From positions 485,368-549,367 of the forward strand of contig LCLP01000001.1 in the NCBI GenBank assembly GCA_001002135.1: a stretch of DNA of 64,000 nt, in the 5' to 3' direction. This DNA comes from Candidatus Pacebacteria bacterium GW2011_GWA1_46_10 (GTDB lineage Bacteria > Patescibacteriota > Microgenomatia > UBA1400 > PJMF01). Positions 18,429 to 30,386 of the stretch are shown one piece after another. Positions within the stretch are counted from its first letter, which is position 1. The number at the start of each line of letters is the position of its first letter. Made by a program: the position numbers and the translations under genes. A model generated the notes under the pieces. It saw only the letters and a list, made by a program, of their open reading frames with translations. It did no database searches and had not been told where the DNA came from.

Positions 18429-18436
18429 AAATGCTG

Positions 18437-18509
18437 AGCCAGAACTGGGATTCGAACCCAGGACCTACGGTTTACGATACCGCCGCTCTACCAACTGAGC
18501 TATTCTGGC
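18437..18509 (-). tRNA. tRNA-Thr (anticodon CGU)
   Basis: cloverleaf GCCAGAA/TTCTGGC acceptor, anticodon loop AUCGUAA, T-loop GGTTCGAATCC; no encoded CCA. Confidence 0.9.
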
Positions 18510-18526
18510 TATCAGTGTACCACTTG

Positions 18527-18599
18527 AGCGGCGAACGGGGCTTGAACCCGCGACCTTCTGCTTGGGAAGCAGACGCTCTACCAACTGAGCTATCACCGC
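18527..18599 (-). tRNA. tRNA-Gly (anticodon CCC)
   Basis: acceptor GCGGTGA/TCGCCGC (one G-U), anticodon loop UUCCCAA, T-loop GGTTCAAGCCC. Confidence 0.9.
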
Positions 18600-20610: not shown

Positions 20611-20973
20611 TTAAGGTAATTCAACAGGCAGTTGAGCAGCTAACATGATCTGGCTAATCTTTTTTACCACTTTCTCGGCCTTTTCCATAGTGGTTGACAC
20701 CAAGTGCCTTTCAAAGTAGGTTCGAAAAACCAGATAGGCTACTCGCTCTTCGTTGCGTTCAGAGCCAAGCTCAACGACGAAAGATTCAATTACTTCGTAC
20801 CCCAATAACTCCGCAGCACGATGAGCTTCAAAAGAGACCTCGATGAGGATTCCTTCTACCACCGTTTGCTCTAGAGTCCGGGTAAGCGCTCGGCCGTTCA
20901 AAACTTGGGCGTCCTGTCCTTCCTTTAACTTAGCCACGTTTCCATCTCCTTTTGATCCTCTAGAAAGTCCCAC
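20611..20973 (-). CDS. hypothetical protein (120 aa)
   Basis: ORF only; no recognisable motif; divergent from the 21202 gene. Confidence 0.4.
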   Translation of the reverse strand: MGLSRGSKGDGNVAKLKEGQDAQVLNGRALTRTLEQTVVEGILIEVSFEAHRAAELLGYEVIESFVVELGSERNEERVAYLVFRTYFERHLVSTTMEKAEKVVKKISQIMLAAQLPVELP

Positions 20974-21193: not shown

Positions 21194-21201
21194 ACACTTT
21201 G

Positions 21202-21735
21202 ATGCCAAAACCAGCCGAACTTCACTACGAACGGGTGCGGACCCTGATGCGTGACGGCGAATTTCCTCAGGTCAAAATCCCGATTTTATTAAAAAATGGT
21301 GATCAGCTTAACGACGTCATTCCGTACACCATTGCCCGCACCAAGATCGATGGTAAAGAAACACTGGCCATGTCTTTCCTCGATAGTAACAAAAAAGCTT
21401 TTAAAGTTGGAGTTGACGAAATTGCTGGCTTAGAAGTAGTTCCAGGAGAAGGGGAGTACGCTGGCAAAATGTTAGTTAGTTTTACCTACTATAAGCCAAC
21501 GTCAGAAACACAATACTTGGAAAACAAGCCTAGACATGTCTTAATTTTTGAAATTCGCCATGGGGTCAATGAGGCACATTATGGTTTTGGTGAAAACTAT
21601 GCCTTTTACTTAGTGGGACAAGACGTGCAATACAAAGATGCTCCTCCAGATGAACGTACTCGACAGTTTCCCGAATGGCGAGTGGGTATGATGGGCGATC
21701 CTCAAGCCGTCGAGCCACATTTCAAACGAGATTAA
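21202..21735 (+). CDS. hypothetical protein (177 aa)
   Basis: ORF; ATG 21202 preferred over TTG 21199; no recognisable family. Confidence 0.5.
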   Translation: MPKPAELHYERVRTLMRDGEFPQVKIPILLKNGDQLNDVIPYTIARTKIDGKETLAMSFLDSNKKAFKVGVDEIAGLEVVPGEGEYAGKMLVSFTYYKPTSETQYLENKPRHVLIFEIRHGVNEAHYGFGENYAFYLVGQDVQYKDAPPDERTRQFPEWRVGMMGDPQAVEPHFKRD

Positions 21736-24829: not shown

Positions 24830-24946
24830 CAATTTTTCTCTGACAGTTTCCTCAAGAAAAATCCCATAACTATTGAAAAAGTGATTATTTTGTGTTACAG
24901 TATTTCCCTGGCTTAGACACAAAGAAGAGTGTTGACGAAGGATGGT

Positions 24947-25495
24947 ATGAAAGTTGCTTTTGTGGCATCACTGCAAGAAAAGAAAAATCACCAATTTCAT
25001 TATTTGGCGATCATTGACCTCCTTGAAGGTTTGGGACATACCGTTTTTTACCGCCATATCACTCAATTTAACATCGACGACATCAGCCAATCAGAAAACC
25101 TTAATATTAAGTTTTATAAAAAAGTGTTTCAGGCTCTCAAAGCAGCCGACCTAGTAGTAGCTGAAATCAGCTGTCAAAGCATCAGTATCGGCTACATCAT
25201 TTCAGAAACCCTAAAAATTGGCAAACCGGTTGTGGCCCTCACTACTGCCACCGTGCCGCCGGTGACTACCTATCTTGAGGAGCAGATGCCATTGATCGTC
25301 CACCAGTACGTCTCAATCAGAGCCTTGGAAGAAGAACTGCCATTACTTATTTCTCAAGTAGAACCAAAAAAAGAGAAAAAGTTTAATTTTTTTTTGCCTC
25401 CAGAACTGGATGAGTACCTTTTGAAGGCCGCCAGTGAAAAGCGGCTCTCGAAGTCTGAGTATCTAAGGCAATTGTTGGCAAAAGACCAACATTAA
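24947..25495 (+). CDS. nucleoside 2-deoxyribosyltransferase/LOG-like Rossmannoid domain fused to a C-terminal ribbon-helix-helix (CopG-like) domain
   Basis: MKVAFVASL... then ADLVVAEISCQSISIGYIISETLKIGKPVVAL (NDT/LOG-type motif); C-terminal FNFFLPPELDEYLLKAASEKRLSKSEYLRQLL fits an RHH beta-strand plus two helices; the start could also be 24929. Confidence 0.45.
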   Translation: MKVAFVASLQEKKNHQFHYLAIIDLLEGLGHTVFYRHITQFNIDDISQSENLNIKFYKKVFQALKAADLVVAEISCQSISIGYIISETLKIGKPVVALTTATVPPVTTYLEEQMPLIVHQYVSIRALEEELPLLISQVEPKKEKKFNFFLPPELDEYLLKAASEKRLSKSEYLRQLLAKDQH

Positions 25496-25538
25496 CCCCA
25501 TCTAGCCAAACATTCATTTCATCCTCTATACTATCAGT

Positions 25539-26555
25539 ATGCTCGATTGGTTTTCGACCAAAGACAAAACAAGAGTCACTATTTCCCCTAGTATCGTGGT
25601 TTTTAGCACTGCTTTCCTTGGCTTGATTTACTTCCTTTTTCTGACTCGTAAAATCCTGATTTTACTTTTTTTATCATTCATTTTGATGGTGGCCCTCAAC
25701 CCGGCCGTCAATCGACTCCAAAAGACCCTCCGTCTGCCAAGGGGAGTGAGTATTGCTATCGTGTACGTCCTGTTTTTCTTACTGATCGCCGCTGTCACCG
25801 CCCTGGTGCTGCCGCCATTAACTTCTGAAATTGTGCGCCTGATTAAAACCATTGACTTGCCATACATTCAAGACCAGCTCAATGGTTTTTTCCAGTTTTC
25901 CAATATGGAGTTGGGAACACTCGCCACCCAATTCACCAGTTCGATCAATTTCCTGGTCAGTGCGGTGACTGGCACGGTAACCAGCATCTTTACTTTTATC
26001 ACTTTGCTGATTTTGTCTTTTTACCTGATGCTTGACCGGCCGAACCTGCACCAAAAAATTGTCTGGTTCACCGATGACCGTAAACACCTTTCGCGGGCTG
26101 AACAATTTGTTGATGATTTGGAAATCCAGCTTGGCGGCTGGGTGAGAGGAGAGATTATTCTGATGACCGCGATCGCCTTAATGACATACTTTGGATTAAC
26201 GCTTTTAAAAATCCCATTCGCCTTGCCATTGGCGATTCTGGCTGGTTTTTTGGAAATTTTACCCAACCTGGGCCCTTTTATCTCTGCTATTCCCGCGGTT
26301 ATCTTGGCTTACATCAGCCAAGGCTCTGGCCTGGCTTTAGCAGTGACTGGTTTATACTTAGTCATCCAACAACTAGAAAATAGTCTATTAGTTCCCAAAA
26401 TCATGCGTGTTAACGCGCATGTCAACCCTCTGATTGCTATTCTGAGCATTTTGATTGGGTTGCAGTTATACAGCATTGTGGGAGGGTTGTTGGCCATCCC
26501 GGTCTACATCACCCTACGAGCTATTTACTCCAACTGGCGCAAATACGCACTTTAA
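25539..26555 (+). CDS. AI-2E family transporter (UPF0118/PerM-like)
   Basis: 338 aa, 7-8 TM with topology and C-terminal conserved region typical of the AI-2E family. Confidence 0.75.
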   Translation: MLDWFSTKDKTRVTISPSIVVFSTAFLGLIYFLFLTRKILILLFLSFILMVALNPAVNRLQKTLRLPRGVSIAIVYVLFFLLIAAVTALVLPPLTSEIVRLIKTIDLPYIQDQLNGFFQFSNMELGTLATQFTSSINFLVSAVTGTVTSIFTFITLLILSFYLMLDRPNLHQKIVWFTDDRKHLSRAEQFVDDLEIQLGGWVRGEIILMTAIALMTYFGLTLLKIPFALPLAILAGFLEILPNLGPFISAIPAVILAYISQGSGLALAVTGLYLVIQQLENSLLVPKIMRVNAHVNPLIAILSILIGLQLYSIVGGLLAIPVYITLRAIYSNWRKYAL

Positions 26556-26590: not shown

Positions 26591-27715
26591 ATGGCAACCC
26601 AAGGCCTAGTCGTTTACGCATTCTCTGGTGATCCAATTACCTATGGTCACCTTGATCTCATCAAGCGCGCTCAACAGTTATTTCCCAAAATCATCGTCGC
26701 CATCGGCACCAATCCCGATAAAAACTATACCTTTACTCACCGAGAAAGAACGCGACTGGCTCAACAAGCCCTCGCACACCTCAGGGATGTTACAGTCGAA
26801 GGGTTTGAGGGGTTGATAGTGGATTTTGCCTACGAACAAGGCGCTCAAGCCATTATTAAAGGAGTTCGTGATCCACAAGACTTTCAATATGAACAAACCT
26901 TAAACAGCATCAGCCAAAGCCAACACCACGGCATCGAGACCGTCATTCTCTTTGCTAAACCAGAGTTGGCTCACGTTAGTTCCAGTGCGGTCAAGGCTCT
27001 GCAAACTTCTCAAGGCTTAGTGCACGACTATGTCCCGCTTAATGTTAAAGTGGCGCTCGAAAAAAAACTGTCACACCAAGTATTAATTGGTATCACCGGC
27101 GAAATCGCCAGTGGTAAAAGTTATGTGGCAGAACAACTGGTGATCTGGGGCCAGGCGCAAGGGCAAATCATTCACAATATCGAGTTAGATCACTTGGCAC
27201 ACCAAATTCAAAGTGAGCGAAAAGAGCCACAGTACCAAGCAATCAGAAGTGAAATCGTCAAAAACTTCGGTAAAAGCGTGCAAAACAACGATGGCACTAT
27301 CAACCGCAAAGCGTTGGGCGAAAAAGTTTTTGCCGACCCCCAAAAATTGGCACTGCTCAATCAAATCATGTGGCCGCCAGTATTGGTGCGACTGCGCCGA
27401 GAACTGCGTAATAAACCAGGGATTGTGTTCATTAACAGTGCGCTCCTGGCCGAAGCTGACTTGATGCCGGTCTGTAACAACCGAGTAATCGTGATATCAA
27501 GCACCCAATCAGCCCAAAAAAAACGCTTGCAGGAACGCGGCTTTTCTGATGAACAAATTAACCGTCGTCTCAAATCACAATTTTCAACCAAGAAAAAGCT
27601 TGATTTGATTCAGCAGTCGATCAACCAGTATCACTTTGGTACAATTTGGCAGGTGGGGGATCAGACTGATCTTACTCAGTTCGCCAAAACTTTTTTTAAG
27701 GAAATCACCTCATAA
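26591..27715 (+). CDS. coaDE: bifunctional phosphopantetheine adenylyltransferase / dephospho-CoA kinase (CoaD-CoaE fusion)
   Basis: N-terminal half VVYAFSGDPITYGHLDLI (CoaD H/TxGH nucleotidyltransferase motif) plus ...SSAVKAL; C-terminal half IGITGEIASGKSYVAEQL (CoaE P-loop) plus ...LLNQIMWPPVL...RVIVISSTQSAQKKRLQERGFSDEQ (CoaE lid/C-terminal blocks). Confidence 0.85.
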   Translation: MATQGLVVYAFSGDPITYGHLDLIKRAQQLFPKIIVAIGTNPDKNYTFTHRERTRLAQQALAHLRDVTVEGFEGLIVDFAYEQGAQAIIKGVRDPQDFQYEQTLNSISQSQHHGIETVILFAKPELAHVSSSAVKALQTSQGLVHDYVPLNVKVALEKKLSHQVLIGITGEIASGKSYVAEQLVIWGQAQGQIIHNIELDHLAHQIQSERKEPQYQAIRSEIVKNFGKSVQNNDGTINRKALGEKVFADPQKLALLNQIMWPPVLVRLRRELRNKPGIVFINSALLAEADLMPVCNNRVIVISSTQSAQKKRLQERGFSDEQINRRLKSQFSTKKKLDLIQQSINQYHFGTIWQVGDQTDLTQFAKTFFKEITS

Positions 27716-27719
27716 AAAA

Positions 27720-27878
27720 ATGACCGACAATCAATACCAACAAACTCTCCAGCGCAATAAGATGATTGCCCAAACTTCGGAACGGGCGGCCACGTACATC
27801 GTTCGCTTCGCCGTCGATGCTTTCCGAGCCGTCGTTAAATTTATCCAAGAACTGGTTGCCCAAGCCTTGGGAAAATAA
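27720..27878 (+). CDS. small hypothetical protein (52 aa, helical)
   Basis: ATG 27720 five nt after the coaDE stop; MTDNQYQQTLQRNKMIAQTSERAATYIVRFAVDAFRAVVKFIQELVAQALGK; no family recognised. Confidence 0.25.
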   Translation: MTDNQYQQTLQRNKMIAQTSERAATYIVRFAVDAFRAVVKFIQELVAQALGK

Positions 27879-27903
27879 TCTACCTTTATTAAATACTAAA
27901 AAG

Positions 27904-27976
27904 TGCCAAGCTGAAGAATCGAACTTCAATCTCATGTTTTTCAGACATGCGCCGTGACCACCTTGGCTAGCTTGGC
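27904..27976 (-). tRNA. tRNA-Phe (anticodon GAA)
   Basis: acceptor GCCAAGC/GCTTGGC, anticodon loop CUGAAAA, T-loop TTCGATTC. Confidence 0.85.
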
Positions 27977-28006
27977 ATCCTCAAACGTCTGGTTTTCAAA
28001 AAACCG

Positions 28007-28080
28007 TGGACTCGAGAGGGCTCGAACCTCTGACCTTCCGGATGTAAACCGGACGCTCTAACCAACTGAGCTACGAGTCC
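28007..28080 (-). tRNA. tRNA-Val (anticodon UAC)
   Basis: acceptor GGACTCG/CGAGTCC, D-arm GCTCAGTTGGTTAGAGC, anticodon loop UUUACAU, T-loop GGTTCGAGCCC. Confidence 0.9.
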
Positions 28081-28098
28081 GCATCAAGTCACTTTCCG

Positions 28099-28180
28099 TG
28101 CCCAGGAGAGGAGTTGAACCTCCAAGGATTGCTCCACAGCCACCTCAAGACTGCGCGTCTACCAGTTTCGCCACCTGGGC
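28099..28180 (-). tRNA. tRNA-Leu (anticodon GAG), class II with long variable arm
   Basis: acceptor GCCCAGG/CCTGGGC, anticodon loop UUGAGGU, long variable arm, T-loop GGTTCAACTCC. Confidence 0.85.
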
Positions 28181-28204
28181 ATTCAGCCTCTCCATGAGAG
28201 TGTG

Positions 28205-28278
28205 AGCGAGAAACGGGACTTGAACCCGCGACCTTCTCCTTGGCAAGGAGACGCTCTAGCCAACTGAGCTATTCTCGC
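28205..28278 (-). tRNA. tRNA-Gly (anticodon GCC)
   Basis: acceptor GCGAGAA/TTCTCGC, anticodon loop UUGCCAA, T-loop GGTTCAAGTCC. Confidence 0.9.
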
Positions 28279-28348
28279 GCTAGACAGTCAATTATATCGT
28301 AAAAAAACTAACTATTAACTTTTAGCTTTTCACTGTCAACTATCCTTG

Positions 28349-28431
28349 TGCCAGAGGAGGGAGTCGAACCCTCACACCCTTGCGAGCACTAGTTCCTGAA
28401 ACTAGCCTGTCTACCATTCCAGCACTCTGGC
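28349..28431 (-). tRNA. tRNA-Leu (anticodon CAG), class II
   Basis: acceptor GCCAGAG/CTCTGGC, anticodon loop UUCAGGA, long variable arm, T-loop GGTTCGACTCC; TATAAT -10 at 28443-28448 on the minus strand. Confidence 0.88.
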
Positions 28432-29277: not shown

Positions 29278-29351
29278 TGCCTCAGTAGCTCAGTGGATTA
29301 GAGCGCAGGTCTTCGGAACCTGGCGTCGGGGGTTCGAATCCCTCCTGAGGC
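29278..29351 (+). tRNA. tRNA-Arg (anticodon UCG)
   Basis: acceptor GCCTCAG/CTGAGGC, anticodon loop CUUCGGA, T-loop GGTTCGAATCC; TATAAT at 29263-29268. Confidence 0.9.
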
Positions 29352-29358
29352 ACAACAA

Positions 29359-30309: not shown

Positions 30310-30386
30310 GGGCCAGTAGCTCAGTCGGTTAGAGCACCTGCCTCTTAAGCAGGGTGTCCTGGGTTCGAGTCCCAGCTGGCTCACCA
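30310..30386 (+). tRNA. tRNA-Lys (anticodon CUU), CCA encoded
   Basis: acceptor GGGCCAG/CTGGCTC, anticodon loop CUCUUAA, T-loop GGTTCGAGTCC, 3' ACCA present in the DNA. Confidence 0.9.

Follow-up and report, generated by a model that had tools for sequence, protein, structure and literature searches.

The protein considered here is encoded on a 64,000-nucleotide stretch of the genome of Candidatus Pacebacteria bacterium GW2011_GWA1_46_10 (contig LCLP01000001.1, positions 485,368 to 549,367; hereafter the window). It joins an N-terminal domain of the nucleoside 2-deoxyribosyltransferase (NDT) superfamily, nearest to DNPH1/Rcl and MilB, to a C-terminal ribbon-helix-helix (RHH) domain. This combination of an NDT-type pocket and an RHH domain is an undescribed architecture, and it defines a large family found almost only in the Candidate Phyla Radiation (CPR). 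The N-terminal domain lacks the three residues that perform catalysis in DNPH1 while its phosphate-binding serines and other core or pocket positions are conserved. We consider it moderately probable that the protein is a ligand-responsive RHH regulator in which a pseudoenzyme derived from DNPH1 acts as the sensor. Every family member that was looked up is annotated as "hypothetical protein", and nothing relevant emerged when the literature was searched for fusions of NDT/DNPH1 and RHH domains or for NDT families of the CPR. A better annotation for the gene would be [quoted passage not shown].

A two-domain protein of the NDT superfamily

The open reading frame (ORF) runs without interruption to position 25495 on the + strand, starting either at a GTG (24929) or at an ATG (24947). 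The ATG is favoured as the start codon because the homologues and the family hidden Markov model (HMM) all begin there with MK(V/I), because an AAGGA Shine-Dalgarno sequence lies 4 nt 5' of it, and because the GTG is not kept in the relative L001. The product is 182 aa long from the conserved ATG. An initial annotation of the same DNA had identified the ORF correctly and had given it 188 aa, a length that requires the upstream GTG, which gene callers sometimes pick. The gene is real and is not a chance ORF, since the family HMM matches its product at E=4.7e-60 from the ATG onward, a word-indexed homologue search recovered 8 close homologues (55-100% identity, 58 invariant columns), and an exhaustive profile search returned 513 cluster representatives at E<=1e-10 (1431 at E<=1e-3; clusters were formed at 50% identity). 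According to the family HMM, the window contains one copy of the gene.

Scans of the single sequence against Pfam, NCBIfam, PADLOC and PHROGs gave sub-threshold matches or none, the match to PF05014 standing at E=0.017, and were insufficient for domain assignment, which required profiles of homologues. Among PDB sequences, DNPH1/Rcl is matched at 1.9e-5 by the single sequence, at 1.3e-11 by a 9-sequence profile and at 4.6e-24 over aa 3-137 by a 130-sequence profile, and 93 of the 130 family members match PF05014. Comparison of the N-terminal domain with known folds gave figures of 17.4 for MilB, 14.3 for Rcl and 12-14 for classical NDTs; those for TIR, receiver and LOG-like folds were about 10-11. 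The closest structural relatives are all nucleoside monophosphate (NMP) N-glycosidases, and in a viral fold library the only matches were single-domain NDT-like proteins. The domain has a Rossmann-like NDT fold, with significant similarity in both profile and structure. It lacks both marks of LOG/SLOG membership, the PGGxGTxxE motif and a best match, by profile or by fold, to proteins of the LOG family. Within the NDT superfamily, the N-terminal domain falls in the branch of nucleoside-5'-monophosphate N-glycosidases; it is not LOG-like. Thus, of the NDT/LOG-like Rossmannoid domain named in the initial annotation, the NDT half is upheld by the DNPH1/MilB profile and fold matches and the LOG half is not.

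A short Lys/Glu-rich linker leads into the C-terminal domain, which is comprised of a β-strand (K145-F-N147-F-F149-L) in an extended segment, followed by two helices that AlphaFold2 (AF2) places at aa 152-164 (A) and aa 169-181 (B). Helix B is N-capped by S168-K-S170. The tail has the strand/helix/helix topology of an RHH fold over about 40 aa, with alternating polar or basic strand residues and a Ser/Thr-rich N-cap. A profile of the last ~45 residues matches RHH proteins exclusively in the PDB, with CopG (0.002) and NikR (0.02) followed by Arc and ORF56. Single-sequence Pfam scans gave sub-threshold NikA-like and HicB matches on aa 141-177, and across the 130 members there are 33 Pfam RHH matches: RHH_3 (19), RHH_1 (11), RHH_9 (1), Arc (1) and RHH_5 (1). 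The tail can be set in register with CopG, such that K145, N147 and F149 take the places of R4, T6 and T8 on the β-ribbon, and K169-S170 that of the helix-B N-cap K28-S29. Arg or Lys is found at position 145 in 99% of the family, Asn or Thr at position 147 in 98%, and Ser170 in 69%; the strand and N-cap residues R/K145, N/T147, K/R169, S170 and R174 are nearly invariant overall. Dimerization through an antiparallel β-ribbon and sequence-specific DNA binding are predicted from this likeness. The C-terminal RHH domain proposed in the initial annotation is therefore borne out by the RHH-only PDB matches, the Pfam RHH matches and the AF2 helices; homologue profiles give PF05014 for the N-terminal domain and RHH families for the tail. 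Both peptides that it quoted are present, ADLVVAEISCQSISIGYIISETLKIGKPVVAL as aa 67-98 and FNFFLPPELDEYLLKAASEKRLSKSEYLRQLL as aa 146-177.

Catalytic residues, putative ligand pocket and paralogue groups

The chemistry of DNPH1 depends on Glu104, the essential nucleophile, together with Tyr24 and Asp80 (PMC10483697). Ser98 contacts the 5'-phosphate of its substrate, as do Ser128' from the other subunit and the backbone NH groups of Gly100 and the Ile29-Gly31 loop, and the exchange of Tyr for Phe in the rat enzyme causes a 280-fold loss in kcat/KM (PMC10483697). Residues are numbered here as in the human protein, which is offset from the rat protein by 11 (Rcl Y13, D69 and E93 are human Y24, D80 and E104). 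In ungapped HMM alignments, Tyr24 corresponds to Ala4 of the window protein, Asp80 to Val60, and Glu104 (rat Glu93, NDT Glu98) to Ile84. The stretch ADLVVAEISCQSISIGYIISETLKIGKPVVAL, singled out earlier as a conserved motif, does match the core strand-loop-helix of DNPH1, "ADVVVAEVTQPSLGVGYELGRAVALGKPILCL", and has Ile84 where the nucleophile is expected, so that GYE has become GYI. The motif is a genuine NDT core from which the catalytic Glu that normally begins the helix behind the GxG(Y/T) loop is absent, and the catalytic Tyr and Asp of the NDT/DNPH1 branch are gone as well. With three catalytic residues lost, the nucleotide-processing role first offered for the protein is unlikely; nucleotide-signal binding, offered with it, is plausible.

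Several other positions of the core or pocket are kept. Ser78 is the counterpart of the phosphate-binding Ser98, Ser8 that of Ser28 within the Gly27-Gly31 loop, and Asp68 and Glu73 those of the conserved core residues Asp88 and Glu93; Ser75, Gly82, Lys93 and Pro94 are also retained. Conservation of Ser8 and Ser78 is high or complete, all members of the sub-clade of the window protein share the loop A7-S8-L9..K12..H15-Q16-F17, and the position of the DNPH1 "lid" Arg is occupied by Gln10. Because Tyr, Asp and Glu are replaced while the phosphate-binding serines and other core or pocket positions are conserved, the N-terminal domain looks like a ligand-binding pseudoenzyme. The window protein is predicted to have no N-glycosidase or transferase activity.

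These features can be followed across a large family. Nearly all of its members are 180-200 aa long and match end to end, which shows that the combination of the two domains is conserved. P0018 (401 aa), with two tandem Glu-bearing NDT-like domains and no RHH tail, represents an alternative architecture of the family. A scan with an alignment of the central subfamily found 190 relatives in species-representative genomes, overwhelmingly metagenome-assembled genomes (MAGs) of Patescibacteria/CPR; host lineages include Paceibacterota and Woese-, Shapiro-, Beckwith-, Collier- and Chisholmbacteria. A scan of 185k species-representative genomes with the close alignment did not find the sub-clade of the window protein. 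Among the loci numbered L008-L083, many MAGs titled "uncultured Pseudomonadales" or "Gammaproteobacteria" show CPR-type neighbourhoods like those of named Patescibacteria MAGs, and the taxonomy given in these titles is probably a placeholder or wrong.

Three old paralogue groups separate in a neighbour-joining tree. Group G1, which includes the window protein, consistently has neither Tyr nor Glu, G2 has the Tyr and lacks the Glu, and G3, the only group to keep the Glu, has it together with Tyr, His or Phe. Over the whole family, about 48% of members have Glu at position 84 and about 37% have Leu or Ile there; at position 4, 43% have Tyr and 27% Phe, and the position equivalent to Asp80 is hydrophobic throughout. 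In the Glu-less groups G1 and G2 several of the core or pocket positions are well conserved, with S8 at 86-88%, D68 at >=90%, E73 at 90-100%, S75 at 77-90%, S78 at 88-95%, G82 at 100%, K93 at 80-95% and P94 at 90-93%. The lid Arg (position 10) is commoner in G1 (43%) and G2 (76%) than in G3. This pattern of conservation fits the binding of a phosphorylated ligand without catalysis.

It could instead be proposed that the window protein is an active bifunctional N-glycosidase, which sanitises or salvages deoxy-NMPs or modified NMPs and carries an autoregulatory RHH domain in the manner of PutA, the catalytic acid having been relocated to Glu87 or Glu73. CPR bacteria are dependent on nucleotide salvage, the nearest structural relatives are without exception NMP N-glycosidases, and in the wider family the Glu persists in about half of the members and the Tyr in about 43%. 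Every member of the sub-clade has Glu87, one helical turn past position 84; however, it is present in only about 16% of a paralogue group that as a whole is without Tyr and Glu. In addition, the three defining residues are now non-polar (A4, V60 and I84) in alignments without gaps, and the Glu is essential in DNPH1 (PMC10483697). We regard an active enzyme as unlikely.

Tandem arrays of 2-6 paralogues are present in 30 of the 78 family loci, where Glu-bearing and Glu-less copies are mixed and interleaved with genes for class-I methyltransferases, PfkB kinases and radical S-adenosylmethionine (radical-SAM) enzymes; L032:1-12552, L030:1-12570, L051:1-8618, L057 and L058 are examples. A variable enzyme gene typically lies 5' of each copy, and encodes a radical-SAM protein, a PfkB kinase, one of several kinds of class-I methyltransferase or a protein of ~300 aa that we call c19. 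The catalytic state of the family copy tracks this upstream partner. Among same-strand cases, the copy has the Glu in 10 of 11 with a radical-SAM gene upstream, Tyr and Glu in 5/5 with a PfkB kinase, and no Tyr with Leu at position 84 in all 9 with c19. Where the upstream gene is the helicase-nuclease directly, as in the window, Ala or Phe stands at position 4 and Ile, Leu or Trp at position 84. This partner split between Glu-bearing and Glu-less copies suggests enzymatic and non-enzymatic roles, respectively. The cassette "Glu-less copy - methyltransferase - Glu-bearing copy" recurs in at least 7 loci. The c19 protein (e.g. L048:5084-5989) is a conserved 300-aa protein always found 5' of group-1 (Glu-less, Tyr-less) paralogues; a guess by eye that it is similar to uracil phosphoribosyltransferase was withdrawn, as it has no Pfam match and no significant PDB profile match.

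A wider, doubtful possibility is that the paralogues form a CPR-wide network for scavenged or modified nucleotides in organisms dependent on nucleotide salvage. The Glu-bearing copies, with their methyltransferase, PfkB-kinase and radical-SAM partner genes, would be active NMP N-glycosidases, and the two Glu-less groups would be pseudoenzyme sensors derived from them that recognise the same ligands and switch transcription through their RHH domains, possibly as hetero-oligomers. If this is true, such one-component regulators derived from enzymes would form a class not recognised before, and the sensor of the window may be wired to the neighbouring gene pair of permease and coenzyme A (CoA) salvage (CoaD-CoaE).

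Upstream block and genomic neighbourhood

The coordinates of the gene, of its domains and of the features around it are listed in Table 1.

Table 1. Features of the gene and its surroundings, in window coordinates.
Feature	Position	Strand	Basis or remark
120-aa ORF	20611-20973	-	
178-aa ORF	21199-21735	+	
UvrD-type helicase with C-terminal PD-(D/E)XK nuclease, 1019 aa	21770-24829	+	Pfam; syntenic upstream neighbour
Conserved block CC(C/T)ATAAC(T/C)ATTG(C/A)AA(A/G)(A/G)G	24863-24884	+	Footprint alignment of 6 relatives; candidate operator/promoter element
Sigma-70-like promoter: TTGAAA, 17 nt, TG-extended TACAGT	24873-24901	+	Consensus match only; both hexamers conserved in relatives
Coding sequence, DNPH1-like/RHH protein	24947-25495	+	182 aa + stop; ORF list, sequence, family HMM, homologue alignment
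N-terminal NDT-superfamily domain, aa 1-138, nearest DNPH1/Rcl and MilB	24947-25360	+	
Core motif, aa 67-98	25145-25240	+	Ungapped HMM alignments
Lys/Glu-rich linker EPKKEK, aa 139-144	25361-25378	+	AF2 secondary structure; dip in model confidence (pLDDT) to 82
C-terminal RHH domain, aa 145-182	25379-25492	+	Pfam, PDB profile matches, AF2 helices
-10-like box TATACT	25527-25532	+	Ends 6 nt before permease ATG; CCT(C/T)TATACT in 6/6 relatives; consensus scan
AI-2E/PerM-family permease	25539-26555	+	Pfam PF01594 4e-55; synteny
CoaD-CoaE fusion (phosphopantetheine adenylyltransferase + dephospho-CoA kinase)	26591-27715	+	Pfam PF01467, PF01121; synteny
Five tRNA genes (Phe, Val, Leu, Gly, Leu)	27903-28431	-	Directly after the CoaD-CoaE gene

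Within the 117 nt that precede the gene lies a block that is invariant in 6 relatives while its flanks have diverged. It occurs once per locus and always upstream of the DNPH1-like/RHH gene; when the window was scanned for another copy, only a chance-level match with 3 mismatches appeared. The block overlaps the -35 element TTGAAA of a sigma-70-like promoter. Together, block and promoter form a plausible promoter plus auto-operator. A riboswitch in the 5' leader was considered and rejected (RNA structure z=0.10), and a signal scan found no terminator after the gene. The adjacent permease gene has a conserved -10-like box, CCT(C/T)TATACT, that ends 6-9 nt before its ATG in all six relatives (within 25503-25541 in the window), which suggests that the permease is transcribed from a near-leaderless promoter of its own, with which the 3' end of the RHH gene overlaps.

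The order of genes in the window is Dus, the 120-aa ORF (- strand), the 178-aa ORF, the helicase-nuclease, the DNPH1-like/RHH gene, the AI-2E permease, CoaD-CoaE and a cluster of five tRNA genes (- strand). The ORF list and Pfam agree with the initial annotation on the genes that precede the DNPH1-like/RHH gene (a 120-aa ORF, an ORF of about 178 aa and the helicase-nuclease). On the 3' side, the permease follows directly in 6/6 sampled close relatives and CoaD-CoaE comes next wherever the contig reaches. The permease is a possible regulatory target, and the permease and CoaD-CoaE are a possible CoA-salvage pair. Mechanical ORFs at 27636-27957 overlap the tRNA cluster and are spurious; further tRNA positions are 18436-18599, 29279-29353 and 30310-30386.

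On the 5' side, neither the 120-aa nor the 178-aa ORF has a match in Pfam, NCBIfam, PADLOC or PHROGs. Both are without a homologue in L001, though the helicase and Dus of L001 are 74% and 80% identical to those of the window; the slot between its Dus and helicase genes holds unrelated ORFs of 99, 109 and 70 aa. The slot either evolves fast or is non-coding. The four genes at 20.6-25.5 kb, put forward earlier as a possible unit, do not form one because the two small ORFs are ORFans (ORFs without homologues), and only the order Dus-helicase-(variable enzyme)-family gene is syntenic. The order of Dus, helicase and, further on, the family gene is found in about 19/78 family loci, with helicase orthologues of about 50% identity, and an inserted enzyme gene separates helicase and family gene in many lineages. 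In L088, whose family protein is 59% identical to that of the window, the helicase is not adjacent and the upstream gene L088:3-839 (- strand) is unrelated; its product is cysteine-rich near the C-terminus (CKLCPWYKSCKKWC).

A role in defence had been part of the first interpretation, which spoke of a nucleotide-centred conflict or regulatory system, and the gene could in principle encode a signal-sensing or regulatory subunit that works with the upstream helicase-nuclease. The adjacency of the two genes extends to distant relatives in the roughly 19 loci just mentioned, and the variation in copy number and the tandem arrays with variable enzymes resemble variable islands. The helicase-nuclease also matches the PADLOC models of GajB at 1.8e-78. 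However, this match reflects generic UvrD similarity (NCBIfam PcrA, 3.7e-100). The helicase is a positional orthologue (~50% identity) across CPR lineages, set amid genes for Dus, tRNAs, CoA, phosphoribosyl pyrophosphate (PRPP) synthetase and translation, and neither GajA nor another effector partner is present; the case shows how PADLOC matches can mislead. The link between helicase and family gene is often interrupted by inserted enzyme genes and is lost in L088. The window protein and both hypothetical ORFs have no PADLOC match, and searches of 50k phage records, 72k plasmids and IMG/VR returned no relatives of the gene. The neighbourhood is a housekeeping one, as it is in L001 (tRNAs, CoA, PRPP synthetase, BipA, ProRS). 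The conflict part of the first interpretation is not supported by these results, and a defence subunit is, in our view, very improbable.

The same neighbourhood bears on the idea, also raised earlier, of an antitoxin-like RHH autoregulator in a toxin-antitoxin module. A globular domain followed by a C-terminal RHH resembles HicB-type antitoxins, and the weak HicB and NikA-like Pfam matches on the tail fit this. Nevertheless, the gene has no toxin-like partner on either side, here or in any of the relatives, its neighbours in the window being the 1019-aa helicase and the permease, and its location is chromosomal, syntenic and housekeeping, with no copies on the plasmids or phages searched. Membership in a toxin-antitoxin module is barely conceivable.

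Proposed mechanism and comparison with known systems

We propose that the DNPH1/MilB-type domain binds, without hydrolysing it, a ligand resembling a nucleoside 5'-phosphate. Binding without hydrolysis is proposed because the catalytic Tyr, Asp and Glu are lost and the phosphate-binding serines and pocket positions are kept. The short basic linker would connect this sensor to the RHH tails, which would pair into DNA-binding dimers. The DNPH1-like domains would supply a second surface for oligomerization and ligand sensing, as DNPH1 is a dimer with its active site at the interface. Occupancy by the ligand would then alter operator binding, following a logic like that of NikR, MetJ and further RHH repressors under effector control. 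The most probable DNA target would be the conserved block on the -35 element of the gene itself, which would amount to autoregulation, and the adjacent AI-2E permease and CoaD-CoaE genes may be further targets. That the ligand is related to CoA is speculation, because the link to the permease and CoaD-CoaE rests only on adjacency in one sub-clade.

Several observations weigh against this regulator model. The upstream block is only weakly palindromic; it could simply serve as a promoter or UP element or bind some other factor. A search for a family-wide operator motif by upstream 8-mer enrichment recovered only start-codon context and -10 boxes. The permease's own -10-like box makes its co-regulation with the RHH gene uncertain. 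The AF2 model is of a monomer, and the equivalent of Ser128' (about T108) is not conserved. Given the sub-clade-invariant Glu87 and the universal Glu73, there is a small chance that catalysis has been relocated. Finally, the base-contacting RHH residues are near-invariant over hundreds of paralogues, which is unusual for regulators of distinct targets.

This near-identity, like the failure to find a family-wide operator, would also fit an RHH tail that is a non-specific DNA or nucleoid tether or a dimerization module, in a protein with a structural or scaffold role, e.g. as a heteromer with Glu-bearing paralogues that it might localise or modulate. Such pairs of Glu-less and Glu-bearing copies do co-occur in the recurrent methyltransferase cassette, but the 64-kb window has one copy only. 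The sharply conserved block at the promoter is specific to the sub-clade, and the conserved pocket positions argue for ligand binding, so that we think a tether or scaffold improbable and retain the ligand-responsive regulator.

CPR bacteria, or Patescibacteria, have tiny genomes with few recognisable regulators, and are believed to rely on nucleotide salvage. A family of more than 500 clusters, often in 2-6 tandem copies beside methyltransferase, kinase or radical-SAM genes, is a candidate lineage-specific system of regulation or metabolism. Its three paralogue groups, which differ at the Tyr and the Glu on one scaffold, provide a natural enzyme-to-pseudoenzyme series from which it could be learned how N-glycosidases come to serve as ligand sensors. 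Drugs are currently being sought against DNPH1 itself, and divergent ligand-binding relatives may be structurally informative.

Among known proteins, DNPH1/Rcl and the CMP N-glycosidases MilB and BcmB are nearest in the N-terminal domain. They differ from the window protein in having the catalytic triplet Tyr24/Asp80/Glu104 where it has Ala/Val/Ile, and an equivalent of Ser128' that it has not conserved. No characterised DNPH1, MilB or NDT protein has a C-terminal RHH domain, and the window protein belongs to a bacterial (CPR), multi-paralogue family. In overall logic it is closer to NikR, MetJ and PutA, in which an RHH domain is coupled, within one polypeptide or functionally, to a small-molecule-binding or oligomerization domain. 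By analogy with NikR and MetJ, ligand-dependent operator binding, possibly by a dimer of dimers, would be expected. However, the RHH domain is N-terminal in NikR and PutA and C-terminal here, the sensor is ACT-like in NikR, a flavoenzyme in PutA and an NDT/DNPH1 fold here, and there is no sequence relationship to these three proteins beyond the RHH. CopG is the best PDB sequence match of the tail and aligns with it in register, while CopG, Arc and Mnt are stand-alone proteins of ~45-80 aa on mobile elements (plasmids and phages) and the window RHH is one domain of a chromosomal two-domain protein. HicB-type antitoxins share the order of a globular domain and a C-terminal RHH, and are weakly matched by the tail in Pfam, but their N-terminal fold is unrelated and the window gene has no HicA or other toxin partner. 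The Gabija system requires GajA together with GajB, whereas the window locus offers a GajB-like helicase match alone.

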